Assembly (NCBI GenBank): GCA_040285745.1
Contig: JAUFOR010000002.1
Span: forward strand, 310,001 to 374,000
Source: Barthelona sp. PCE
Lineage: Eukaryota
DNA: 64,000 nucleotides
Direction: 5' to 3'
A program made the translations under genes and the position numbers. How positions within the stretch are numbered: position 1 is the stretch's first letter; each line of letters begins with the position of its first letter. Shown piece by piece: positions 6,312 to 60,624 of the stretch. The notes under the pieces were generated by a model. The model worked only from the letters and a program-made list of their open reading frames with translations. It was not told the DNA's origin and made no database searches.

Positions 6312-9300
6312 CTAATAGTGAATCACTAAATAGAAGGCAAGCAGTGCAATCGCGCGCCAGAGTAAGTTGGGTCGATGCATAAAGAAAGAACCGCCTGAGA
6401 ACGGGGTGGTGGGTGGTTTGTACTCCCCTCCACCATGTGATAATGGCTGTGAGCAATCAGGTGCCCCCCAGTTTATATCACACAGACACACACCGTTCAT
6501 ACATAAACCGTGAGATGTGCAGAAGTTGTGATCACTACAATCACCTGATGTTTCCTCACCATCATCCTCAGTACCGCTGTTTGTGTCGCCAACAGCAGAA
6601 TTAGGCCACATAGTCAACGCGATCTTCTCAATGAAGACTGGACTGGGGATGTCAGACATTACATGAATGGACGCTGTACCGGAAGGCGTAAACTCATCGA
6701 GTCTCCATATGTTCACTGCAACGTCAGTGATGGATCTTGCTGATACAGGGCTCAGAAGCGACGACTGTATTGCGTTGTTATTTGCATCATAATAAACTAT
6801 GCGAATTATTCCTGCGACATTAGAGATAAATATTCCGCTTATTTTCTCTATCATCACCTGGGGTTTAATAATAAAGTATGCATCATCAGCGCCCGAAGCA
6901 CCATTGATGGCCAGGAGGCGAAATGACTCGTGTACAGCATAAGACGTGGCCGATGGAGCTACACTGACAAGCTTAAGGTAATCTGCATCTCCTGCGTATC
7001 TCTGGCACTCAATAACAAGCCCTAAGTGGTCAAATTGGCCCCCATCAATTTCAATAATGCTGTCTTCTGTGGCAGCAGACTCCAAAACAGGTACGTTGAA
7101 CGAAATATCAAAAGAAATCTTTGCTGCCAAGTTCCGATCTAAGGTCCAGCATGAATCTCCTTTGAATCCTCTGTTGCATGCACACATAGATGATATACAC
7201 TGTCCATACGGGGAGCAACCACCAGGACATGCTCTCGTGACTGGTACACTACAATCTGCTCCAATATACCCAGGGTGACACTCACACTTCCCATCCATGC
7301 ACTTCCCATGTGAAGAACAGTCATTGATGCACGTTTTCAGCTGACAATGTTCTCCACTACGACCTGCCTGACACAAACAAATGTTTGTATCAGTGCATTT
7401 ACCTCCGTTACAGTCAGCATCAACATGGCAACTGATTGGTACCTCCACAGTATCACAGGGTGCCCATTCGGCTAGAGAACTCTTGATAAAACCGTTGAAA
7501 CAGTCACAGATCTTACGATTCATTCTAATCTTGCATCTTCCGTACTGACAGTCCAAATTGCACTCATATATAGTTGGCTCGTTACAGATTGAACCACTGT
7601 AGTTTGCATTACATATGCACTTTTTCGAAATAGAATCACAGTATCCGTGAACACACGGAGGGCATCCAAGGAATACAGGGACATACGAAAGCTCGCACGT
7701 CTCTCCGAAAAATGGAAACGTACATATGCAATGCCCGTTCATACAGTACCCTCTATCCTTGTTGCACAGCGCAGAGCAAGATGCCTCAGTTTCACCTTCT
7801 CCAACAACATTAATCTCGTCAGTGTCAGTGTCAGTCGTATTCTGAATTGGTTTCGTTCCATTATCGATGGAGACGGATGTATCGTTAGTGATGATAGTGT
7901 CGTTGGTCGTGACAAGAGGCTGATCAACCACTGTGTTGTTAGTATCAATAAAAGTGTTGTTAGTTTCAATTAAAGTGTTGTTAGTGTCAACCAATGTGTT
8001 GTTAGTATCAACCAATGTGTTGTTAGTTTCAATCAAAGTGTTGTTAGTGTCAACCACTGTGTTGTTAGTATCAACCAATGTGTTGTTAGTTTCAATTAAA
8101 GTGTTGTTAGTGTCAACCACTGTGTTGTTAGTTTCAATTAAAGTGTTGTTAGTTTCAATCAAAGTGTGGTTCAAAGTTGTTTCATTATAAACGCTGTTGT
8201 TGTCTATTGGCGCTGCAATTGTGCCATTTGTGAATACTAATTCATCACCACTGCCATTGTTCACCGTAATTGTGTCGTTAACAACAGTAGTTTTGTTAAC
8301 AACGACAACATTCGAGTCAGTTACATTGCTCAGTGTGTCATTAGCATTGTCAACTGATGAGTTCATCACATTCACTGTTGAGTTTACCAACGAAACATCA
8401 TTAATCAGTGTCTTGTTATTATCCACACTTTCTGTAGTATTCAATACAGGCTCAGAAATGTTACTCGCTGTGATATTAACTGTTAGAAGCGTGATATTGA
8501 CTGATTGCTCTGTTGCATTTATGACTGGCGGAAGGATATCATTGATATGCGGTTCAGTAATGTTTGACACTAGGGATAAAGTGCCACTATTTAAGGGCTC
8601 AGTTAGGTTCAACTCAAGCAGCGAAGTAACAACTTCAGCTTCGTTAATTCCATCATTGCTTGGGAGCCCATTAGAGGCTTCTATGTCCCAATACAGAAGG
8701 GGGCTTGCATTAGCTATCTGCAAAGCTTCATCAATGAAAACATCATACACTATGTCACATTTTTTGGACGCAACTAGCCATCTATTGTCTCCACTGCTCA
8801 CAGTAATCAAATCTGATGGCCGGGGAGAGTACTCAGGTGCGATTTTTCCATGATCAGAGCTGAAAGAAACGACAAACGGTATTTTTTGAAACTCATAAAC
8901 ATGTTTTCCAAAACAGATGAGTTCAATGGGCACACACCTCGCGCTGTTGCCGTTGAAAATGATGATTTTCGACTCGTGTTTTGAGGAGAGCAATGGTAGA
9001 AACTGTCGGCCCAAAACTTGGCAAAAACTTGGTATCTTAGCCGAGAATGTCAACGTTAATATACCAAAAGCCCTTGTATGTACATCCATATTGATGTTCT
9101 GAGGAAGAATACCAAGACCAATGTCTTTATCACAAACATACATAATTGAATTCGAGCTACAATTGAATTCAAAGATGTATGAATCATGAATCGTTATCTT
9201 ACTGCAATCCATTACTATCTCACACATTGTATTTTGCTGTAAATGGAATAGAACTAAAGAGCCCCGGTGAATATCTGTAATTTTGCCCGTTTCAAGAGAA

Positions 9301-9350
9301 ACTGCTCCAAAAAGTAATGCAAATAGAAGAATAAGTGAGACCAAGTACAT
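6312..9350 (-). CDS. Surface protein with tenascin-type EGF repeats, N-glycan-rich stalk and GPI-like C-terminal signal
   Basis: Signal peptide MYLVSLILLFALLFGAVS; CINDCSSHGKCMDGKCECHPGYIGADCS-type repeats; many NxT/S sequons; hydrophobic C-terminus. Confidence 0.8.
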   Translation of the reverse strand: MYLVSLILLFALLFGAVSLETGKITDIHRGSLVLFHLQQNTMCEIVMDCSKITIHDSYIFEFNCSSNSIMYVCDKDIGLGILPQNINMDVHTRAFGILTLTFSAKIPSFCQVLGRQFLPLLSSKHESKIIIFNGNSARCVPIELICFGKHVYEFQKIPFVVSFSSDHGKIAPEYSPRPSDLITVSSGDNRWLVASKKCDIVYDVFIDEALQIANASPLLYWDIEASNGLPSNDGINEAEVVTSLLELNLTEPLNSGTLSLVSNITEPHINDILPPVINATEQSVNITLLTVNITASNISEPVLNTTESVDNNKTLINDVSLVNSTVNVMNSSVDNANDTLSNVTDSNVVVVNKTTVVNDTITVNNGSGDELVFTNGTIAAPIDNNSVYNETTLNHTLIETNNTLIETNNTVVDTNNTLIETNNTLVDTNNTVVDTNNTLIETNNTLVDTNNTLVDTNNTLIETNNTFIDTNNTVVDQPLVTTNDTIITNDTSVSIDNGTKPIQNTTDTDTDEINVVGEGETEASCSALCNKDRGYCMNGHCICTFPFFGETCELSYVPVFLGCPPCVHGYCDSISKKCICNANYSGSICNEPTIYECNLDCQYGRCKIRMNRKICDCFNGFIKSSLAEWAPCDTVEVPISCHVDADCNGGKCTDTNICLCQAGRSGEHCQLKTCINDCSSHGKCMDGKCECHPGYIGADCSVPVTRACPGGCSPYGQCISSMCACNRGFKGDSCWTLDRNLAAKISFDISFNVPVLESAATEDSIIEIDGGQFDHLGLVIECQRYAGDADYLKLVSVAPSATSYAVHESFRLLAINGASGADDAYFIIKPQVMIEKISGIFISNVAGIIRIVYYDANNNAIQSSLLSPVSARSITDVAVNIWRLDEFTPSGTASIHVMSDIPSPVFIEKIALTMWPNSAVGDTNSGTEDDGEETSGDCSDHNFCTSHGLCMNGVCLCDINWGAPDCSQPLSHGGGEYKPPTTPFSGGSFFMHRPNLLWRAIALLAFYLVIHY
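7923..8165 (-). repeat. Coding 21-bp minisatellite, 11 full units plus one partial, with a 63-bp higher-order period
   Basis: Encodes T(L/V/F)(I/V)(E/D)TNN repeats; plus-strand unit resembles GTTGTTAGTTTCAATTAAAGT. Confidence 0.97.
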
Positions 9351-9538
9351 CAAAAATTGCTGAATCGAGGATAGAGGACAAAACAATATACAGTTCCAAA
9401 AGTCTCAATATGTTTTCCAATTGTTTGGGGCGCGTTTGAGCTTTGATAGACTGCAAAATCCAGATAAATGAGCCATATACGGTTACACATATGCTTATCC
9501 AAATCTCACCATTCCCAAAAACTAGGAATCATTTTTGA

Positions 9539-10189
9539 ATGAGTTCTACTTCCGCAATCCACATGATAGGGGGCGAATCGTTCACTGAAGCAGAGAAAAT
9601 GAACCTTAACGAACATCCATTTTTTGAGGGGCTTCCCAGTTGTAGTTTGTGTCCTAACATTCCTAAGCTGCGGGCAAAGGGGTTCACAGAGCTTATTTCA
9701 TTTCACCAATTGTGTTCAGGATACGACCCTAACGATTTTTCTATCAACTATTTGAACACGATTAAAACAAACACACATCATCTGGTTGAGCAAATGAAAG
9801 AGGGCACCCACAGAAGGATACCGTCAAAGCATTATATGAGTGCAGGAAAAATCAAGCAGGCAACAAACATTGGTATTAACGTATGTAGTTGCCCATCTAA
9901 TGCTGTTGATGTTGGTTTTGCTTTAAAGAAGGCGCTCGAGGCCATGGGTAAGAACTGTACTGTGCTGTATATGGGCGGCCTAGACGAAGATAGAGTTGGA
10001 AATCACTATAAGTTGGATTGTATAATTGTAGTAGGGTGTTATGAAACGTTGGCTGAGGTATATACACGTCGTTTAGATATTGATCCACCACTTTACACCA
10101 TCTTGGATGCACTTTTAGCACTGGAAAAGATTCCTTTTGATTCAAAAATGGACTTTCCACATCACACATGGTTAGAACTACTAGAGTAA
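9539..10189 (+). CDS. DPH2: Diphthamide biosynthesis DPH2-like protein, short
   Basis: IGINV...LKKALEAMGKNCTVLYMG...GNHYKLDCIIVVGCYE...PLYTILDALLAL resembles the DPH2 C-terminal domain. Confidence 0.65.
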   Translation: MSSTSAIHMIGGESFTEAEKMNLNEHPFFEGLPSCSLCPNIPKLRAKGFTELISFHQLCSGYDPNDFSINYLNTIKTNTHHLVEQMKEGTHRRIPSKHYMSAGKIKQATNIGINVCSCPSNAVDVGFALKKALEAMGKNCTVLYMGGLDEDRVGNHYKLDCIIVVGCYETLAEVYTRRLDIDPPLYTILDALLALEKIPFDSKMDFPHHTWLELLE

Positions 10190-14471: not shown

Positions 14472-15389
14472 ATGAACACACCGTATGTTAGTTCGGTGCG
14501 TTCAAGTCCGTACACATGTTGTAAGATAGATCCATCTCTAACGTTGATTGCGGCAGGGAGTAGCGATGGTTCATTGGGAGTTTACGATTTTGATTTAAAA
14601 TTGCGCTATGCACTCACAGGCCACCACAGGGGCGTCACGTGCTTAACATTCAACCCTGTATCACATCACCTTGTGTTGAGCGGTTCCGATGATTGTCACG
14701 CGATTTTGTGGGATCTTCGCAAGAAGCAGGCGGTATTTACAGCTCGTGGGCACAACTCGTACATCCTTGATGTTGATTTCCATCCACATGGATCGGTTTT
14801 TGCAACAGCTTCAAACGATGAAACGGTTTGTCTTTGGGATGTTCGTTCAGGTAATAAGCTTCGAACGCTAGAGGCTCACACAGATGCAGTGAATACAGTG
14901 AACTTCTCAAGGGATGGCACATGTTTATTGACAAGCAGTTATGAAGGACATATTCGTATTTGGGAAACTTCAACTGGCAGATGTCTACAAACACTACTGA
15001 ATGACGGTACAGGCCCATGCTCTTTTGCGAGCTTCTCCCCCAACGAGAAGTACTGCCTTGTGGGCACAACAGAAGAAGTGTCATTGTGGGATCTAAGAGG
15101 AGAACTATTGCGCAAACTTCCGGAGATTGGGCGAAGTGATTATTTGACTAATTCTGTGTTTGTGGATGCGCCTGGAACCCAATTCGGTAACGATGTATGG
15201 TGTGTAATTGGGGTTAATGAAGACGACCAGCTTGTATTGGTTGATGTTGATAACAATGCAGTTTTAGAAACAGCAACTTTAGATTTCACACCAATTTGCT
15301 TGGATATGGTCGATAACTCACTTGTTGTATGTGGATTTTCTGAACAAGGTAAGGGATATTTGCAATGTTATGAAACATTGTTTGAATAA
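14472..15389 (+). CDS. WDR5: WD40 protein, WDR5/Swd3-like (COMPASS)
   Basis: TLEAHTDAVNTVNFSRDGTCLLTSSYEGHIRIWETSTGRCLQTL...SFASFSPNEKY closely parallels WDR5; start taken at MNTPYV. Confidence 0.7.
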   Translation: MNTPYVSSVRSSPYTCCKIDPSLTLIAAGSSDGSLGVYDFDLKLRYALTGHHRGVTCLTFNPVSHHLVLSGSDDCHAILWDLRKKQAVFTARGHNSYILDVDFHPHGSVFATASNDETVCLWDVRSGNKLRTLEAHTDAVNTVNFSRDGTCLLTSSYEGHIRIWETSTGRCLQTLLNDGTGPCSFASFSPNEKYCLVGTTEEVSLWDLRGELLRKLPEIGRSDYLTNSVFVDAPGTQFGNDVWCVIGVNEDDQLVLVDVDNNAVLETATLDFTPICLDMVDNSLVVCGFSEQGKGYLQCYETLFE

Positions 15390-27514: not shown

Positions 27515-29293
27515 TCAAGCATCTAAGATATCCAACACATGAACCTTCAAACTTTCATATTGTCGTCTGTTCAACCCATGTTCTTTGCTGAATAACTTAA
27601 TAACTTCTTCTGGATCATTATCTTCATAAATACAGAGTCGATGTGTAATATTAGGTCTTACATCAACATCCATCTCAAATAAAAGACTGCTGTTGAGCTG
27701 TTGTTTCAATTGTTCCAATACTCCTGACAACTGTTTCTTCAATTTTGCAGTTTTGTTCGGATGCAGACTATATGTCTTTCCAAAACTGTTCACAATGTCT
27801 TCTATGGAGTCATTTGCTCTCAAAACGATTGTACCTTTCTTGGTATTACTGATTTGAACTTCAATTCTTGCGCTTGGTTCCGAACTCTTTCTTTTTTGAG
27901 ATGCAAGGAATTTCTCCCCATGAAAACGGAAGCCAACTGGTGTTGTGGGGACGTACTGTTCATAAGACATCTCTCTTGTCCTGCTGTTCTCATAAAACTC
28001 CTTCAATCGAATGTTTGTGTTTGCCAATTTTTGTTTGATGAGCGTTGCAATTCGTGATGTGATTCTGCTATCAAGGTGGAACGTTTTAACAACAATCTCC
28101 GCCACATTTTCTGCGCTATCACCATCATATACCCGTACACTAACTAGCTCATTTGCTGGGGCAGGTAACATCAACTCAAAAAGAACTGAATTTCTTACCT
28201 CATCCTTCTCAAGCTGCTGTTTGAATAAACGCTGTCTTGGTGTCATTACAGGAGAGGGATTCTTCCCTTCAGTACCATATCGCTCGAAGGTGCCATTCAA
28301 ATCTTGTGGTGTTTGAGGAACACTGTCTAGCATCAGATCGTCCAGCGCATCGAACCGGTCTGACATCCTGTCTGGAGTCATTGGTACTTCTTTTTTCATT
28401 GGCATATCCAAATCAGACACGTGTAACTCACCTTCGATCGGTCTCAATGGAGATGGTGACGTCAGTTGGGCCAACAGCTCATTTAATTCATTGTATCTAC
28501 TGGCAAGTTTGGGATTTGACAGTCGAAGATTCTCTTGATGCTTGATCTTTTTCAATTCACTAATATCTTGCTCTGACAATGTATCAACGCCACCAGTGCT
28601 CATAAACTCTGATACGGTATCTGAGAAATCCATGCTACCAAATGCCTGATCATCAACTACTTCTGCTGGACGGAATTGTGATGTATTTGTTGGAACATTT
28701 GACACTGGTGTGAGGATCTCCTTCGGTTCTGGGAGAGATGCGGTGGATAACGCCCGAACTATTGGATCTTCAGGAACGCTATTATCATAATTTGTGGGAG
28801 TAATATGCACTCCTAACAATCGCTTCAATAAGGATACATTTTGGTTTGTTTTAGATGATACATGCATGAAAAAGAACCCATTGCTCACAGCATATGACTC
28901 GACTTGTGTATAACTAACTGCATTTTTGCTTGTAAAACTTTCATCAAGCTTCAACCCCAAAAGTATTTGAGTTGGTGGAAGAGCATTTAAACTTCCAAGA
29001 GCACTTGGGATCCATATCTCTTTCACAGAGTTGAACGTTTCTAACTTGCTGCAATCATAACAAAAAATTATACAATCAACATTTGACAAATAATCACACA
29101 ATACATAGTCTTCTGCGAGTTCCTCGGCACATATATCGTGGAGCTCGACCTCGTTGTCCCCAAGCATGGTAGAATGAGTCTCCATATCCAACGTTTGTGA
29201 ATATGAAGATTTGAACTCTAACCCGCATAACTTTCGAATTATTTGCGTCTTTCCAACCTTCTCGTCCCCAACAAAACATAGCTTCAATACCAT
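27515..29293 (-). CDS. Divergent Rab-like GTPase domain plus long linker plus three repeated C-terminal domains
   Basis: LKLCFVGDEKVGKT, G3 DICA, G4 LKLD, G5 SSK; repeats VRVYDGDSAE / IVLRANDSIE / LCIYEDNDPE each followed by F..x(H/Y)xL. Confidence 0.7.
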   Translation of the reverse strand: MVLKLCFVGDEKVGKTQIIRKLCGLEFKSSYSQTLDMETHSTMLGDNEVELHDICAEELAEDYVLCDYLSNVDCIIFCYDCSKLETFNSVKEIWIPSALGSLNALPPTQILLGLKLDESFTSKNAVSYTQVESYAVSNGFFFMHVSSKTNQNVSLLKRLLGVHITPTNYDNSVPEDPIVRALSTASLPEPKEILTPVSNVPTNTSQFRPAEVVDDQAFGSMDFSDTVSEFMSTGGVDTLSEQDISELKKIKHQENLRLSNPKLASRYNELNELLAQLTSPSPLRPIEGELHVSDLDMPMKKEVPMTPDRMSDRFDALDDLMLDSVPQTPQDLNGTFERYGTEGKNPSPVMTPRQRLFKQQLEKDEVRNSVLFELMLPAPANELVSVRVYDGDSAENVAEIVVKTFHLDSRITSRIATLIKQKLANTNIRLKEFYENSRTREMSYEQYVPTTPVGFRFHGEKFLASQKRKSSEPSARIEVQISNTKKGTIVLRANDSIEDIVNSFGKTYSLHPNKTAKLKKQLSGVLEQLKQQLNSSLLFEMDVDVRPNITHRLCIYEDNDPEEVIKLFSKEHGLNRRQYESLKVHVLDILDA

Positions 29294-29361
29294 TGCTCAA
29301 AATATGGTTAAAGCCTCAAGAAAGGGTGCTAAAGCGAAAACAACCCATTTCTTTAGATTTC

Positions 29362-30540
29362 ATGTCTATACTTGTTAGATATGCCGAGATCAGGGACCAC
29401 TTGCAATTAAACAATTTGGAAAATGTGAATAAGGATGCGGTCAATGAACTGCTTACATGTTTATTGGGACTTTTTGAGGAAATACACGTGTGCAGGAGCG
29501 TTTTACTGGATGAATTTCCTTCACTTCAGATATTTTATGATTGTGTTAAGTGTATAGAACCGTTTATTCATTTATTGGACAATTTTTGTGAGCAAAACTT
29601 TGAAATTGTCAAGGAAAAAAATCTCCCTAAGCATATTCAGTTGTCTTTTGCAACTTTAATGACAAAATTTGATCCCAAACACATTCTGCAGCGTTTCCAA
29701 AAATTCACATCACTTGTTGACACTTTAAGTCGACATTTTACAATATTAGAAGATGGAAAATCGTTTTTACAGGGTTATGTATCCACAATAGTACCAAATC
29801 TAAAAGAATTACTGGGTGCTAAAGTGTCAGTTGATCTGCTAATATTTGGTGGTGGTCTTAACAGTCTTGCAGAAATATCCCACTTAGGATACGAGCACAT
29901 TGGTGTAGATTACGCAAACTACAAGGATTCAACAGTTCTAAATCACTGTGGAGTTTTATATCTATGTGATATTGTTCAAGCAGTGAATCAGAGTCAGAGA
30001 AGAAAAGTTTTAAGGATGGTTTCAGCCAATACAATACATGCTGTGAGGATGGACTCAACAAATTTAACAGATTTAACATTTATTCAAAAAAGAATCGAAA
30101 AAATCAACAAAAAAGTATTGCAACTAAATGAAAAAACAATAATACACAAGAAACCACTTGATATCCCTGGCAAAAAGACGAGATCTAGGGGTGGAAGACG
30201 TCATAGAAAGATGAAAGAGAAGAAACGACAATCTTCGGCTCAGAAATTACAAAATATTATGCAGTTTGGTAGAAAAGAGGAAACCATAGGACTCACTGGC
30301 GTGGGTCTGGGTGTTCTCGACCGCACAGAAGTTGTTGAACAACTTGCTGTTAGAGCAGAAAAAAAAACATACTTTAATCCAAGTCTCATCAAAAAATCAC
30401 TGGATAATGATGATCATGTCAAAGCTAAAGCAGGTTCGAACACGTTCTCGTTCATACCTGTGAAAAACGATCCTAAAACGACTGATATGTACAGCAATCA
30501 AAACTCTCATGTGTTAAACTTGCTAGCGCAGGATTGGTAA
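29362..30540 (+). CDS. PRP31: U4/U6.U5 tri-snRNP protein Prp31, divergent
   Basis: IVPNLKELLG (Nop domain), KPLDIP..RSRGGRRHRKMKEK, KLQNIMQFG..EE, GVGLG; first in-frame ATG at 29362. Confidence 0.85.
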   Translation: MSILVRYAEIRDHLQLNNLENVNKDAVNELLTCLLGLFEEIHVCRSVLLDEFPSLQIFYDCVKCIEPFIHLLDNFCEQNFEIVKEKNLPKHIQLSFATLMTKFDPKHILQRFQKFTSLVDTLSRHFTILEDGKSFLQGYVSTIVPNLKELLGAKVSVDLLIFGGGLNSLAEISHLGYEHIGVDYANYKDSTVLNHCGVLYLCDIVQAVNQSQRRKVLRMVSANTIHAVRMDSTNLTDLTFIQKRIEKINKKVLQLNEKTIIHKKPLDIPGKKTRSRGGRRHRKMKEKKRQSSAQKLQNIMQFGRKEETIGLTGVGLGVLDRTEVVEQLAVRAEKKTYFNPSLIKKSLDNDDHVKAKAGSNTFSFIPVKNDPKTTDMYSNQNSHVLNLLAQDW

Positions 30541-42140: not shown

Positions 42141-44522
42141 ATGCCAGTACACGAAACTGATTATTCTTTTAACCTTGATGATATGAGTACAGAGATTGAA
42201 ATTGAGCTTCATTCTGAGGCATCAGAAGTATCTGATTATGCTGTGAGCCCCAGTATTGCTCGAGCACCAAGCGTCCTGGGATCACTAAGCACATTCCAAT
42301 ACACAAAATCACTTTCTCGTTCTAGTGCAAAGCTTCAAGCCTTAAACAGAGTTCATTCGAGTCATCCAGAGGGTACTTTTTCCCCTGAGCCCGAGTATAT
42401 ACCATCCAAAGTTGAAGTTCATACTCTTTTGGAATTTTTCCGTCGTGGAGCTTTATTCGAAACTAAAGAGACAGAAATTTCTGCTATTTTCAGTTCTGCT
42501 GTCAACAACCTCGTGAAAGAAAAGCTTCTTTCTCCTTTACTTTTCTCTCCAGCTTATCAAGCACTTATTCGTTCACAAGAGGCATATGCCCAAGCCGTTG
42601 GTGAAGCCTTTGACTTCTCATTGGGATATGTCGAGAACCTTGATGAACCATTAGTTGCAGTCACAAGACTGGAGCATCCAGTTAACTTTGATGCTTCTGA
42701 TAACGTCCCAACAAAGTGGATTTTTGTTTTCCTTCTGCCACTTGCTTATGAAAGCAATCCCGTTGTTATGGTTTCAATCATCAATACACTAACATACCTT
42801 ATGTCATTGGACGCTGTGCATTGTTCTGCCTTTTTAGCACCTGATCTTGAGACCTTCCTAGGTGAAGTCGAAGCTGAGCTAATGGATAGAAATCTAATTG
42901 CTGCTGCTGATTGCGCTTCACCAAAGCCAAAAAAAAAAGATGTTGGATTTAGTGAAAAGACCCGTCGTGCTGAGTTTATCGCATCTTTATCACCCCAAAA
43001 GGGAATTTTTGGTGAATTTATCAAAGATTGTAAGAGATTTGGTAAATATTACAAGCGTACATGGACTAATGCCTGGAATGGTAAGCTTCTTGCTTCCATT
43101 TTCTTTATTTTCTTTGCTGTTCTTGCTCCTGCCGTTTCTTTCGGTGCCATCATTGGTGAAGTTACTGAAAATGCTATTGGTGTTAACGAATGTCTTATTT
43201 CTGCTGCAGTTCTAGGTATTTTCTATGCAATTTTTGGTAATCCACTCATTGTTATTGGTGCTACCGGACCCATCCTTGTCTTCACCCGTTTAATTATGGA
43301 CCTATCAAAGCTTTGGGAGGTTGATTTCCTGCAGCTTTACGGTTGGATCTCTGTATGGACTGGCGTTTGTCTTATTATCATTGGTCTGCTAGGTTTTTCC
43401 ACGTTGATGAGATATGCCACGCGTTTCCTTGATGAAATCTTTTCTTCTCTAATTGGTCTAATCTTCATTTACGAAGCAATCAAGTATCTAATCAAGGTCT
43501 TTTCTGATCATGAGGTCTATGAACCTGAAACTGCTTGGTTAACGCTTGTTTTACAGTTGGGTACCCTCTATCTTTCACGTCGTTTTGTTGCTCTCAAAAA
43601 GAGCAAATATCTCAGCAAGACCCTTCGCACTATCATTGCCGATCTCGGCACTATCATTAGCATCATCCTCATGACCACACTCGATGTGATTGTTGAGGAT
43701 AACCATACTGTGACAGACAAGCTTATATTGCCTTCCGACGTTTGGTCGCCCACATCCGGTCGTGATTGGCTTGTTCCGTTATTTGACATGAAGACCAGCG
43801 TTATTCTGCTGAGTATCCTTCCTGCGCTATTGCAGACCGTGCTTGTTGTTATTGATCACAACATCACCGTCCATCTTGTATACCATGTTGATAACAAATG
43901 TATGCCACCAGTATACTCATTCGACCTCATTGTAATTGGAATCACGTGTCTGTTCACTGGTCCGTTCGGATTGGTTGTTTCATGTGGTGCTACGGTGCGT
44001 TCAATCAACCTCCTGTTCTCTCAGTCTGTCACGGAAATCATGCCTGATGAAGATGGAAAACAAGTAACGAGGGTTATCAAGTGTTACGACAATCGAGTGT
44101 CTAACCTCGTCATCCACATTCTCGTATTTTGCGCTCTTTTGGCAAGCTCAATCTTTAAGTATCTGCCACTTGGAGTCCTTCAAGGTGTGTTTTTGTCGAT
44201 GGGTATCTCTACTATTATCAATAACCAGCTTTTCGAACGTGTGATGCTCCTATTCCAAGAGAAGCAATTGCATAATGTTCATTCATATCTACGTACTGTA
44301 TGTTCGAAATCCATCAACATCTTCACGATCATCCAAGTCCTCCTTATTGGATTCCTGTGGTTGGTTAAGTCTTCTGCTTTTGCCATTGTATTCCCCATTG
44401 TATTATTGCTCCTCCCATTGGTTAGGTTCAAGATACTCCCAAGATTCATCCCTGAGAACGATTTAGCCGAACTTGACCGCGAAGAAGAAGCTGAAGATCA
44501 TGAGGATGATGTTCTTAACTAA
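42141..44522 (+). CDS. SLC4 (band 3/bicarbonate) transporter with PTS EIIA-like cytoplasmic domain
   Basis: FIFFAVLAPAVSFG, GATGPILVF, TRFLDEIF, IDHNIT, ATVRS, VLQGVFLSMG, NQLFER; N-domain VTRLEHPVNFDASDNVPTKWIFV. Confidence 0.9.
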   Translation: MPVHETDYSFNLDDMSTEIEIELHSEASEVSDYAVSPSIARAPSVLGSLSTFQYTKSLSRSSAKLQALNRVHSSHPEGTFSPEPEYIPSKVEVHTLLEFFRRGALFETKETEISAIFSSAVNNLVKEKLLSPLLFSPAYQALIRSQEAYAQAVGEAFDFSLGYVENLDEPLVAVTRLEHPVNFDASDNVPTKWIFVFLLPLAYESNPVVMVSIINTLTYLMSLDAVHCSAFLAPDLETFLGEVEAELMDRNLIAAADCASPKPKKKDVGFSEKTRRAEFIASLSPQKGIFGEFIKDCKRFGKYYKRTWTNAWNGKLLASIFFIFFAVLAPAVSFGAIIGEVTENAIGVNECLISAAVLGIFYAIFGNPLIVIGATGPILVFTRLIMDLSKLWEVDFLQLYGWISVWTGVCLIIIGLLGFSTLMRYATRFLDEIFSSLIGLIFIYEAIKYLIKVFSDHEVYEPETAWLTLVLQLGTLYLSRRFVALKKSKYLSKTLRTIIADLGTIISIILMTTLDVIVEDNHTVTDKLILPSDVWSPTSGRDWLVPLFDMKTSVILLSILPALLQTVLVVIDHNITVHLVYHVDNKCMPPVYSFDLIVIGITCLFTGPFGLVVSCGATVRSINLLFSQSVTEIMPDEDGKQVTRVIKCYDNRVSNLVIHILVFCALLASSIFKYLPLGVLQGVFLSMGISTIINNQLFERVMLLFQEKQLHNVHSYLRTVCSKSINIFTIIQVLLIGFLWLVKSSAFAIVFPIVLLLLPLVRFKILPRFIPENDLAELDREEEAEDHEDDVLN

Positions 44523-44531
44523 CTCTACATG

Positions 44532-44538
44532 AGTAAAT
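44532..44538 (+). terminator. Candidate polyadenylation signal AGTAAAT (representative of six AGTAAAY hits)
   Basis: Lies 9 nt after the SLC4 stop; matches the Giardia AGTRAAY consensus; recurs at other gene ends. Confidence 0.55.
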
Positions 44539-56401: not shown

Positions 56402-57902
56402 GAGCATCAGGTATCTTGAATTTCTCTGAGGGTTCATCAACTTCATAAACACGCGAGACCAACTGGTCTGTGAATAAATTTGCATTCTCATCGTTTTCAA
56501 ATACTCTGATAGCTGAAAGCGCCTTCTCGAAACCAGCGTCTATGTTTAACTCGTGGTCATCCGGGACAATCACTGATTCAGGAACTGTGGAACCGCATGT
56601 GAAAGTAACGTAATCATATACACATGCATATGATGGCATTAATCCACTAATGAACTCGAGATATGTCTCAACCGTGGAACGTGCACCGACAAATGTGTAC
56701 TTGAAGAACCCGCCAGGAACAGAACGATTGCGGTCTGACTCCACCAAAAAAAGATCAAGGTCTGACGATGAACCTAAAATGACTGGGTGGGTGGAGCTGT
56801 CAGCAAATATGTTCTCCCTGGAGATGATAATGCCTACGCTGAATTGATACTCGTACTGGGAATCAGCGCAATACGAAGGACTAACAAAGAGTGAATTTGT
56901 GTGAATCCTCTTGTTAGCGTTGAAGTGTACATCGAACCCGTTCTCCTTTGTCTCAACAAAGACAGGTGGAGTCATCCAGTTTAGAGCACCGTGAAACGAG
57001 CAGAATCTCTGTGAAATTGCCTGAACAATGTCATTCGATGAATACCTGGGGTAGATATGCACAAATTCGTTCTTACCGCGCAATACGCCCGCCTTTCGCA
57101 CACCAGTGAGCACTTCACCTGTTGACACAGGTCTCTGAGAGCAAACAGAGTTGGAAAATGACTGTAGTGCATCGGCCATCTTCGCTGACACTTTCCCATC
57201 TGAAACAAGTTGTGTGAACGGCGTCTCATCCTGCAACATGGGGGAATCTTGATTTGCAATACTCTGAACTATCCTTCCCAATTCTCTTTTATCACGAAGA
57301 GTCAATGATTTCATTCTAAAAAGCTCCGTACGATCGGAAGGTATAGACACAAGCTCGGGCGAGCCAGTGCATATTCTGAGGCAGTAGAATGGAGAGTGGA
57401 GACTGAACTTAATAACGTGTCTAAAGAAATTAGCGTTGGCGAAACGATAATATCTTGATGCATAAGTGCATAAAAGAGGGTATGTTGTAAAGTGCCACCT
57501 ATTGGGGCCCTTGGGTTCCAGTATTTGCTCCTTTTCTTCAGGTGAAACGTTTTCAAAAAGGGATTCAGCGATGATTGAAAAATTTTTAATTGGATTCTTT
57601 GGGAGTTTTGTTAAGTAAAACCCAGATAACCCATCAAAATCTGACATTTCTCCAGGTTTATACTGCTGGAACTCCCTTGGAAGCTCATCAGGCAATTCAT
57701 TACAAATAAATTCCTCGCTGTTAAGGTGGTTTCCCAAATGATTCAGCGAAAAGTGCTGATTTAGACCACCTCTGTTGCATGTACATGTCTGCAAAACACT
57801 CATGTGACGAACCTGAAGTGCTAATGAAAGCAAACTCTGTGTAAGATCATCTCCAATAACAATAGACTCATAACTATCCTTATAAACGGAATCATCACTC
57901 AT
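56391..57902 (-). CDS. Rab escort protein / GDI family, divergent
   Basis: YESIVIGDDLTQSLLSLAL, IPSDRTELFRMKSLTLRDKR, IYPRYSSNDIVQA parallel REP/Mrs6 motifs. Confidence 0.75.
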   Translation of the reverse strand: MSDDSVYKDSYESIVIGDDLTQSLLSLALQVRHMSVLQTCTCNRGGLNQHFSLNHLGNHLNSEEFICNELPDELPREFQQYKPGEMSDFDGLSGFYLTKLPKNPIKNFSIIAESLFENVSPEEKEQILEPKGPNRWHFTTYPLLCTYASRYYRFANANFFRHVIKFSLHSPFYCLRICTGSPELVSIPSDRTELFRMKSLTLRDKRELGRIVQSIANQDSPMLQDETPFTQLVSDGKVSAKMADALQSFSNSVCSQRPVSTGEVLTGVRKAGVLRGKNEFVHIYPRYSSNDIVQAISQRFCSFHGALNWMTPPVFVETKENGFDVHFNANKRIHTNSLFVSPSYCADSQYEYQFSVGIIISRENIFADSSTHPVILGSSSDLDLFLVESDRNRSVPGGFFKYTFVGARSTVETYLEFISGLMPSYACVYDYVTFTCGSTVPESVIVPDDHELNIDAGFEKALSAIRVFENDENANLFTDQLVSRVYEVDEPSEKFKIPDALKE

Positions 57903-57956
57903 TGCAAATCAAAACAAAGCCCAATTTTAGTAAGGGAAAAAAAACAAAATGTGGTT

Positions 57957-58804
57957 TTACAAAAGGTCACAACAGCCACCGCTGCCACCTTCCTCATCAG
58001 AGTAGTTTCTCATTTCACGAACAACCTGTGAGAAAGCCTGCTCGACGTTCTTATTGGTCTTTGCAGAAGTTTCAATAAAGGGAATCTTGTTCTCTCTGGC
58101 CCATGCCCGAGCTTCGTTAGGGAGCACAGCCCACTTCTCGACGGCAAGATCCACCTTGTTTGCAGCAAGGACAACAGGAACGTGATCCATGTTGAACTTA
58201 ACAGATCTGATGTGATGGAAAAGGTTCTTTGCATCGTTCCAAGAAGCCTTAGAATCAACAGCGTACACGAGGAGGAAACCATCTCCCTCTGCCATGTAAG
58301 TGTCACGAAGTGAAGCAAAAGATTCTTGACCAGCAGAATCAACAAGCTCTAAAGCTTGAGCAGAACTGTCAACAATCATCTCATGCTTGTAGGTGTCACC
58401 GATTGTGGGATCGTATTCTTCAACGAATTCACCACTAATGAGCTGCAGAGTTAATGCGGACTTACCAACCTAAACGTTAGATATTCTTTCAATTAAAAAT
58501 GTGGATTGACAATAAAATGCCCTGTGATGTGTGTTCTGAATGCTGATTACACAATAATTATTTGCACAAACAAAAAAAAGCTGAAATACCTTCATTCTAG
58601 CTTATCCAAACAATATGTGCAAAAAAGTACGCTGAACACCGCCAAAATTGCATCACTTGCTGAAAAATCTGCAATTTTCTGAAATCTAAAGATTCAAATA
58701 AGAACAGCTTACACAAGCTAGCCTGACGTTCTATCGTCATACCAACGCTGATGAAAACATACGGAACCGCCACCAACAACGACAATCTTCTTCTCTTGCG
58801 ACAT
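57957..58804 (-). CDS. Ras-family small GTPase (exons 58804-58763 and 58469-57957, 184 aa)
   Basis: Spliced KIVVVGGGS|VGKSALT, YDPTIGDTY, DSAGQE, NKVD, ETSAK, C-terminal CCDLL CaaX. Confidence 0.95.
58470..58762 (-). other. Spliceosomal intron, 293 nt, phase 0, splitting the Ras P-loop
   Basis: GTATGT...CTAACGTTTAG; removal restores GxxxxGKS. Confidence 0.95.
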
Positions 58805-59457
58805 GATATGGTTTGAAATACAAAAAGCAAGATCTCAGCGAAATATACAAAAATCACTCATAACAAGGTTGGTTAATATACAGTTAAGGGCTGGGAAATA
58901 GATAAAAACGGACATAGCTTCACATTATTAGGATACCAAAAAAATCATCTCAAACCTCCAAATTCTGCACGAATATTGCTTTTATCCGATCATTAATCAT
59001 TTTTATTACCAATATTGTAAGGAACAAACAAACGCAAACACTTATAAGCGAACCTGCGAATTTTACTTTTTTCCACTGATGTTAGTAAGACCCTTTTGCC
59101 TGTTAGAGTAATTAGCTAATATATTTTTAACACAATTTAGCTTTTTGTACCTTCTATCTTATCCAACAACAGAATACAACAGAAAAACTACATATATCAA
59201 TATTCAAGCCATTTTACAATATATTCGACTGTTTATGAACATTAATCATTAAAAATAAGTTGAAAACACCATAATATGAGCAACAATTGAACAAAAAAAA
59301 AAAACTAACTAACCATCACTCAATGTATATCTAATTTCTCATGCTCTATTAAATATGTTCATGGGATTAATTCTGTTCATGCACAACAAACAACAAACAA
59401 ACAAAAAAGCCCATCACATTCGTTTATCCACCTTAACACTCAAATATCTCTTTGAAA

Positions 59458-60360
59458 ATGGACATGAACAATACTAAACACGGCGATAAGAGAGCTTCTT
59501 TCACTGGTAATGCTATGTTCCACACTTTTGTAGTAATACTTCAGTTTTCAAGCTTTATTGGGACTTCTTTCATTAAAAACGAGACAGTTTCTAAGATTAT
59601 TGTATGCTTCACCCTCACAATGACCCTTTGTTCATTGCTATTGGCACGTATTTCCAACAATTTTTTTGCGGGATTTCTTCTTTTTTTCAGGGCTATCTTT
59701 TTGTTCTACTGTGGGCTAATTGTTGCTACATTCCTTTGCATCATTAAAAACAATTTGTTGGGCTATTATCCTGATTCTTACAATTTTAGCTGGATACCAA
59801 GCAGTTCCCTATTCATTAATGGTATCACTGTGATTTCGTACGTCTTTATAGGTGCCATAATCATTCTTTATCCGCTCGTCGTACTCCAATCAATCTTTAT
59901 GTTGATTCAACTACCAGGTACCGTGTTTTGGAGCAATGATATGAAAGCTTGGAAGCTCTTAGTTTATCTTGGGTTCTCTTTTGCCACCTTTATGCTGTAT
60001 GTATTATTCATATTCAGCACAAATATGTTTTTTTTGATAACAAGCGCTATTATTGGCATCATTTTGCTGTCATTTTTGTTTTGTTTTGCTCTTGCATCAC
60101 TTGTAGAGCTTGAGGTTATACTTTCTCATGGTTTATTCGTGCAAAAATGGCAGTTTTTTATTGTTACAGGTTTACCTGGAATTTTGTGTTTTTTTGAAAC
60201 TTTCTTTACCTTTTACAAGCTTGTTGTTCCCAAATTCTCTTCGGATGTGGTCACGTCAATGGTTTTATCAGTCTCTCTTGTTCTTTCTATTGTTTTTATT
60301 GGCTGGATGCGTGAAACATCAAAAAATAGTAGTGAATATACATATCTAACTCTGGTTTGA
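59458..60360 (+). CDS. Hypothetical polytopic membrane protein (about 8 TM)
   Basis: Almost entirely hydrophobic, 300 aa; tail ends in YTYL/YLTL (YxxPhi-like). Confidence 0.7.
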   Translation: MDMNNTKHGDKRASFTGNAMFHTFVVILQFSSFIGTSFIKNETVSKIIVCFTLTMTLCSLLLARISNNFFAGFLLFFRAIFLFYCGLIVATFLCIIKNNLLGYYPDSYNFSWIPSSSLFINGITVISYVFIGAIIILYPLVVLQSIFMLIQLPGTVFWSNDMKAWKLLVYLGFSFATFMLYVLFIFSTNMFFLITSAIIGIILLSFLFCFALASLVELEVILSHGLFVQKWQFFIVTGLPGILCFFETFFTFYKLVVPKFSSDVVTSMVLSVSLVLSIVFIGWMRETSKNSSEYTYLTLV

Positions 60361-60624
60361 TATGTCATATCGTATCTAAGAATATGGTAGCACAGTAAAC
60401 CTTAAGAAACGTTTAGAATGATGTATAGATCTTGAGAATCAAGGGCTATTCAATGGACACCCACAAAAAATCATCATACTGACGTCTTCTTCACTATACA
60501 TTACTACATAAACACCCAGGTATGTATATAGCAGCAGTTAAGCCTGAAATAAACTCTAGAATTATAAAAATCATACTTCTGAAGTTTTAACCTCTTTCTG
60601 CATTAGCACACCACTAATTTCACT

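Follow-up and report, generated by a model that had tools for sequence, protein, structure and literature searches.

The zipper stem, a helix formed inside an intron, was established as a mechanism by mutation in the yeast genes RPS17B, RPS6B and APE2 (Rogic 2008, PMC2536676), and zipper stems were later found by DMS probing in many introns of yeast (Rangan 2025, PMC12350175). According to the definition used in the latter work, such a stem contains at least 6 bp with no more than 5 bulged nucleotides, and its linker has a minimum length of 42 nt (PMC12350175). The intron of yeast RPL7B carries a zipper stem together with a competing alternative structure, which is used for autoregulation (PMC12311795).

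Folded long introns have also been described in metamonads. The long cis-introns of Giardia, Spironucleus and Trichomonas are reported to fold to single-stranded spans of 35–45, 40–42 and 25–44 nt, respectively (Hudson 2019, PMC6679479), and these folded spans match the uniform short introns of each species. The folds are MFOLD predictions, and the passages of that paper which present them mention no shuffled controls. Folded cis-introns were proposed there as precursors of the split, trans-spliced introns of Giardia. Diplomonad introns carry GTATGT at the 5' splice site, the motif ACT[AG]AC near a [CT]AG end, and a strict spacing between the branch point and the 3' splice site (PMC6679479). 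Until now, zipper stems or a comparable constraint on intron length are known from yeast and, among parasites, from diplomonads and parabasalids.

Barthelona sp. PCE is a free-living barthelonid metamonad with a genome of 10.2 Mb in 8 contigs and a GC content of 40.3%. Its gene models were obtained with the guidance of RNA-seq, and in the main text of the genome paper the word "intron" is used once, in Methods (PMC11316075). The present analysis concerns an intron of 293 nt in a Ras-family gene of this organism, located in a 64-kb window, i.e., the whole stretch of DNA that was analysed.

This intron shares several features with the folded long introns of Giardia lamblia, Spironucleus spp. and Trichomonas vaginalis, all of them members of the supergroup Metamonada like Barthelona. 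A 5' splice site of the sequence GTATGT and a fused branch-point/3' splice-site motif ending in [CT]AG are common to all of them, as is the combination of a long intron with internal pairing that leaves donor and acceptor separated by a short single-stranded span. In the predicted fold of the Barthelona intron this span is about 50 nt, somewhat longer than the spans given above for the other three genera. They also differ in the interior of the fold, which is multi-branched in the 293-nt intron of Barthelona and consists of a single extended stem-loop in the described introns of the other three genera. The zipper-stem introns of yeast (RPS17B, RPS6B, APE2, RPL7B) resemble the Barthelona intron in being situated near the 5' end of the gene in an intron-poor host genome and in having strong GUAUGU and UAAC-type signals. 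However, the host is an unrelated eukaryote, a metamonad, and the host gene encodes a small GTPase and not a ribosomal protein. In addition, the probable branch point of the Barthelona intron precedes the 3' splice site by 7 nt, a distance too short to accommodate a "downstream stem". The stems of yeast are backed by probing and mutation, whereas that of Barthelona is known from a folding prediction.

As for the split introns of Giardia, the similarity consists in complementary 5' and 3' segments, able in principle to keep two halves in contact. In contrast to them, the Barthelona intron is contiguous, with both exons on one strand, and its duplex is short, with 14–17 bp, of which 3 are G-U pairs, and an energy of −13 to −16.5 kcal/mol. 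No sign of intron fragmentation was found at the Ras locus, which does not qualify as a split intron of the Giardia type. The remark in the original prediction that a break in the loop would yield a trans-spliced intron is hypothetical and expresses an evolutionary idea already published (PMC6679479); the Barthelona intron is in cis.

The Ras-family gene and its intron

The gene has two exons and occupies positions 57957–58804 on the minus strand of the window. Its parts are listed below in the direction of transcription.

58763–58804, minus strand: first exon of the gene for the Ras-family GTPase, 14 codons beginning with ATG at 58804, MSQEKKIVVVGGGS
58470–58762, minus strand: spliceosomal intron of 293 nt, in phase 0 and inserted in the P-loop (GGGS/VGKS); its removal gives the annotated protein
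58757–58762, minus strand: 5' splice site GUAUGU, intron nt 1–6, as read in the sequence; it matches the GTATGT consensus (PMC6679479)
58470–58481, minus strand: fused branch-point/3' splice-site motif UCUAACGUUUAG, intron nt 282–293, likewise read in the sequence
57957–58469, minus strand: second exon of the gene, with 170 codons and a stop codon, starting with VGKSALT and ending with GGCCDLL before the stop

The joined translation of exons 1 and 2 coincides letter for letter with PCE1_000381, a hypothetical protein of 184 aa from Barthelona sp. PCE, to which exon 2 showed 100% identity in the protein search. Since the two exons together equal this public protein, the intron can be accepted as real. 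The joining of the exons brings back the P-loop GGGSVGKS in an intact reading frame. The locus is uninterrupted on the minus strand, with the exons 293 nt apart and the complete intron between them; U accounts for 39% and G for 20% of the intron.

The pentanucleotide CU[AG]AC occurs in the 293-nt intron once, within UCUAACGUUUAG, and the branch adenosine is probably nt 286 (58477), 7 nt before the intron end. In this one intron, UCUAAC fits ACT[AG]AC at 5 of 6 positions and is followed by GUUUAG, the intron ending in UAG. To judge by its signals, the 293-nt stretch is an ordinary annotated cis-spliced spliceosomal intron of the metamonad type.

Assignment of the protein to the Ras family is provided by exon 2, which matched the Pfam family Ras (PF00071) with an E-value of 9.3e-43. 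The nearest proteins other than PCE1_000381 itself are Ras proteins of fungi, animals and unnamed sources with 46–48% identity, and there was no named Ras orthologue of barthelonids or skoliomonads among the protein-search matches. A metagenome scan with the 184-aa Ras protein gave 111 pattern matches, none of them encoding a relative. The protein (57957–58804, minus strand) has an unusual P-loop, GGGSVGKS, and the C-terminal end CCDLL; it contains DSAGQE, in comparison with DTAGQE as the canonical Ras motif.

Several other motifs resembling splice signals were noted on the same strand. A 5'-splice-site-like GUAUGA is situated at 58737–58742 (minus strand), i.e., at intron nt 21–26, and overlaps the 5' arm of the long-range helix considered below; its use would lengthen exon 1 by 20 nt and cause a frameshift. 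Upstream of the gene, TCTAACAG and ACTAACATCAG, similar to branch points and 3' splice sites, are found at 59100–59107 and 59076–59086 (minus strand), approximately 270–300 nt before the Ras start codon. No GTATGT is present upstream of these two motifs within the 648-nt gap; they could belong to an intron of the 5'-UTR whose donor is unusual, or could have arisen by chance.

A predicted long-range helix

It was stated in the original prediction that the Ras intron folds into a closed multi-stem structure, in which a segment near the 5' end pairs with a segment near the 3' end. All 16 strings quoted in support of this fold were found where they had been placed. The 5' segment UGACGAUAGAACGUC (58739–58725) can indeed pair with GGCAUUUUAUUGUCA (58521–58507) at 14 of 15 positions, including 3 G-U pairs, and UGG/CCA (nt 19–21 and 259–261) lengthens the helix. 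As a result, 18 + 32 nt remain outside, which corresponds to a folded single-stranded span of about 50 nt. The two arms are as follows.

58725–58744, minus strand: 5' arm of the predicted long-range (zipper) helix, intron nt 19–38, UGG..UGACGAUAGAACGUC, supported by pair probabilities
58502–58521, minus strand: 3' arm of the predicted long-range helix, intron nt 242–261, GGCAUUUUAUUGUCA..CCA, supported by pair probabilities

Using RNAfold, the helix of nt 24–38 with nt 242–256 was obtained in both the minimum free energy (MFE) and the centroid structure. Partition-function folding had been suggested together with the prediction as a way to check it, and the long-range helix dominated the predicted ensemble, with a probability of about 0.9. 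More precisely, the pairs of nt 24–34 (with nt 246–256) have probabilities of 0.88–0.94, those of nt 36–38 with nt 242–244 have 0.88–0.90, and the UGG/CCA extension is at about 0.4–0.5. When flanking exon sequence was added, from 0 to 713 nt, the probability of the long-range helix was 0.69–0.94, and at temperatures from 15 to 37 °C it was about 0.94. The MFE of the intron is −68.5 kcal/mol and becomes −52.4 kcal/mol if the long-range helix is forbidden, i.e., the contribution of the helix is approximately 16 kcal/mol. Thus, the closing helix is a real match between the two segments and a robustly predicted, dominant element of the modelled ensemble.

The energy of the long-range duplex is −16.5 kcal/mol in the sense strand versus −10.0 kcal/mol for its antisense equivalent. 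The helix was not detected as an inverted repeat in DNA, its longest Watson–Crick run being 4 bp. In the folding model, it depends on the RNA sense strand through its 3 G-U pairs.

Comparison with the definition of zipper stems cited above showed that the predicted stem agrees with it in all positional respects (PMC12350175). The stem comprises 14 bp (nt 19–34 with nt 246–261), and 3 bp more follow past a 1 × 1 mismatch. The linker is 18 + 24 = 42 nt, exactly the lower limit; without UGG/CCA it would be 23 + 29 = 52 nt. It should be taken into account that the confidence in a helix is given by an in-vivo DMS value of at least 70% in the yeast study (PMC12350175), while the values of 0.88–0.94 for Barthelona are thermodynamic pair probabilities.

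The interior of the fold was found to be different from that described originally. The elements considered here and in the following section are given below.

58724–58739, minus strand: local alternative hairpin UGACG-AUAGAA-CGUCA, intron nt 24–39, −4.3 kcal/mol, incompatible with the long-range helix
58644–58678, minus strand: predicted small hairpin AAAAUUGCA/UGCAAUUUU, intron nt 85–119, probability about 0.55; a perfect 9-nt inverted repeat in DNA
58531–58639, minus strand: central imperfect hairpin of 109 nt, intron nt 124–232, from the folding model, with helix probabilities of 0.52–1.00

Five nested helices had been proposed inside the closing one. The hairpin AAAAUUGCA/UGCAAUUUU survived partition-function folding, while the other four (nt 57–62 with 226–231, 67–71 with 222–226, 140–147 with 195–202 and 160–164 with 181–185) have probabilities of about 0. 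The listed helices by themselves give −35.5 kcal/mol, and with all of them enforced and the rest of the intron left free the energy is −55.4 versus −68.5 kcal/mol, so this set was rejected as the preferred fold. Instead of most of the listed inner helices, the folding model favours the 109-nt hairpin of nt 124–232. Its energy is −29.9 kcal/mol, with a z-score of −3.17, and 2 of 200 shuffles matched it, but this z-score is inflated, because the boundaries of the hairpin were picked after folding. As modelled, the multi-stem interior is what any U/G-rich RNA of similar length gives.

Chance pairing and other explanations

The simplest alternative is that the intron is spliced without structural help and that the helix is an occasional product of a U/G-rich RNA of 293 nt. 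Several results are in line with it. The folding z-score, also suggested as a check of the original prediction, turned out unfavourable: for the whole intron it is −1.55, and 12 of 200 shuffles were equally stable. For the antisense strand of the intron (58470–58762, plus strand), the excess of structure over that of its own shuffles is even slightly larger (z −2.18, 5 of 200), therefore the global fold has no sense-strand signature. The closure of the ends is generic as well. [quoted passage not shown] With splice signals kept unpaired, the distance becomes 39 versus 29 ± 9 (437 of 500 shuffles as short). RNA ends are known to be close together whatever the sequence (PMC3017586), and in our modelling the closed topology is not special. 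A stem of any strength in a position suitable for a zipper was present in 296 of 1000 shuffles. Moreover, most of the other listed helices are disfavoured, and the case was chosen after inspection. Against chance stands the stability of the helix. Among the duplexes that the first 60 nt of the intron can form with its last 58 nt, the most stable one has an energy of −26.8 versus −17.5 ± 4.3 kcal/mol in shuffles, 14 of 500 of which matched it. The zipper stem itself (14 bp, linker of 42 nt, −13.2 kcal/mol) was matched by 31 of 1000 dinucleotide shuffles, and its energy was reached in 10 of 790 random 293-nt windows of the 64-kb stretch (3 of 241 when GC-matched); all these figures refer to a single case. 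The helix is thereby placed in the top 1–3% against three different nulls, its strength being modestly beyond what the models give by chance, and it is the sole feature of the intron of which this can be said. Besides, it dominates the predicted ensemble, it is located in the position window of functional yeast zipper stems (PMC12350175), and a like pattern was reported for long introns of related metamonads (PMC6679479). In our opinion, chance pairing has to be taken seriously, although it is less probable than a zipper stem.

Other explanations ascribe to the fold a role or an origin of its own. A conformational switch gating Ras splicing was put forward in the original prediction on the basis of two exclusive folds; the local hairpin of nt 24–39 would compete with the long-range helix in response to a factor or condition, in the manner of RPL7B. 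These folds are mutually exclusive, the 5' arm is transcribed approximately 200 nt before its partner, so that the hairpin could form first, and a zipper stem with a competing structure serves autoregulation in a known case (PMC12311795). However, the sole basis of the switch is a hairpin of 5 bp (UGACG/CGUCA) with −4.3 kcal/mol and a probability of 0.04–0.06 at 15–37 °C, weak local alternatives exist for almost any long helix arm, and neither a ligand- or protein-binding motif nor an Rfam match was found in the intron; the switch is therefore very improbable. It was also suggested that the intron possibly hosts a non-coding RNA. In such a case, the looped-out part, especially nt 124–232, would be processed to a stable small RNA which the outer helix would mark or protect. 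The stability of the central hairpin (z −3.17, 2 of 200 shuffles) would fit this, as would the size of the intron, which at 293 nt is large for a genome of 10.2 Mb and for a window with intergenic gaps mostly of 200–680 nt; but the limits of the hairpin were set after folding, and Rfam 15 gave no matches at E-values up to 10 in the region 57000–60500 and none at gathering scores in the whole window. In box C/D RNAs, the C box has the consensus RUGAUGA and the D box CUGA. Both UGAUGA and CUGA are absent from the sense strand of the intron, which excludes a canonical box C/D snoRNA, and a hairpin-hinge-hairpin-ACA arrangement was not found in it on inspection. A hosted RNA is hardly to be expected here. 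Equally little can be said for inverted repeats as relics of an insertion at the DNA level, by which a transposon-derived or hairpin-forming element turned into an intron. The intron does contain several Watson–Crick inverted repeats, and its antisense strand beats its own shuffles, which means that part of the symmetry exists at the DNA level. The long-range helix, on the contrary, is no DNA inverted repeat, with Watson–Crick runs of no more than 4 bp and 3 G-U pairs needed; the arms lie 18–23 nt and 32–37 nt inside the intron ends, in non-terminal positions; and a second copy of the intron is absent from the window, where the best other blastn match covers 28 nt with 86% identity (E 0.037). 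The origin of the closing helix from transposon terminal repeats was rejected on account of the G-U dependence, the internal arms and the lack of copies in the window.

Thus, we give a probability of about 0.5 to the reading in which the Ras intron has a zipper stem and is length-compensated, in the way known from yeast and related metamonads. Length compensation, which the original prediction had likened to that of tubulin, is the best-supported reading of the fold: the helix fits the position of a zipper, and p is about 0.01–0.03, a value that refers to a single intron picked after the helix had been seen. As a whole, the finding amounts to a single computational prediction whose significance is modest.

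According to the proposed mechanism, an imperfect helix of 14–17 bp with G-U pairs would join nt 19–38 to nt 242–261 of the intron and loop out about 200 nt in the pre-mRNA. Such a zipper stem would hold the U1-bound 5' splice site near the U2-bound branch point, since the path between them would be shortened from 285 nt to about 42–52 nt, and the shortened span may be one that a reduced spliceosome handles well. The helix may also mask the cryptic GUAUGA at nt 21–26, which is partly buried in it.

If the zipper stem is real, the constraint imposed by the spliceosome reaches the barthelonid/skoliomonad clade and a free-living organism. This would support the view that such a constraint is a general consequence of intron-poor genomes and reduced spliceosomes, and the locus would become a second system for studying the fragmentation of cis-introns into trans-spliced halves. 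It is rather unlikely, in our estimation, that the long introns of Barthelona are as a rule length-compensated by zipper stems and that pre-folded introns are the substrate for split introns of the Giardia type.

The surrounding 64-kb window

Genes are very closely packed in the window: it contains 39 ORFs with a length of 150 aa or more, separated by gaps mostly of 200–680 nt. Tubulin was looked for in it: no Pfam match to tubulin was obtained in 35 scanned ORFs of the 39, the other 4 overlap longer Pfam-matched ORFs, and no gap between the ORFs of the window is big enough for a tubulin gene. A search for RNA genes in the window gave no Rfam matches at gathering scores and no tRNA by ARAGORN.

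Pairs of the form GTAYGT...CTRAC...AG are numerous in the window, and the Ras intron is the only one whose removal sensibly links an ATG on its upstream side with a long frame; motif scans of the 64 kb revealed no other convincing intron. Among the rejected candidates, that of 592 nt at 9076–9667 falls where codon-usage scoring makes the minus-strand ORF 6312–9386 coding. The candidates 14483–14556 and 44298–44533 lie inside open frames, the latter also within a continuous Pfam match, and 4341–4044 has no usable upstream exon.

Several other ORFs of the window deserve mention. An ORF of 216 aa at 9539–10189 (plus strand), for which the rejected candidate 9076–9667 would have been an upstream intron, matched a diphthamide-synthesis profile at positions 185–270 of 302 only (E 2.2e-6), and this match does not reach the curated cut-off. 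The Ras domain occurs in one more protein of the window, of 592 aa, at the N-terminus; the gene, at 27515–29293 (minus strand), has no intron. A homologue of Prp31, a protein of the U4/U6 snRNP, with a Nop domain and the Prp31 C-terminal domain, is encoded at 29293–30540 (plus strand); its presence in the window suggests that the tri-snRNP machinery has been kept at least in part. The ORF of 1024 aa at 6312–9386 (minus strand) contains teneurin-type EGF repeats (PF25024, E 8.6e-24), which are unexpected in a small free-living flagellate.
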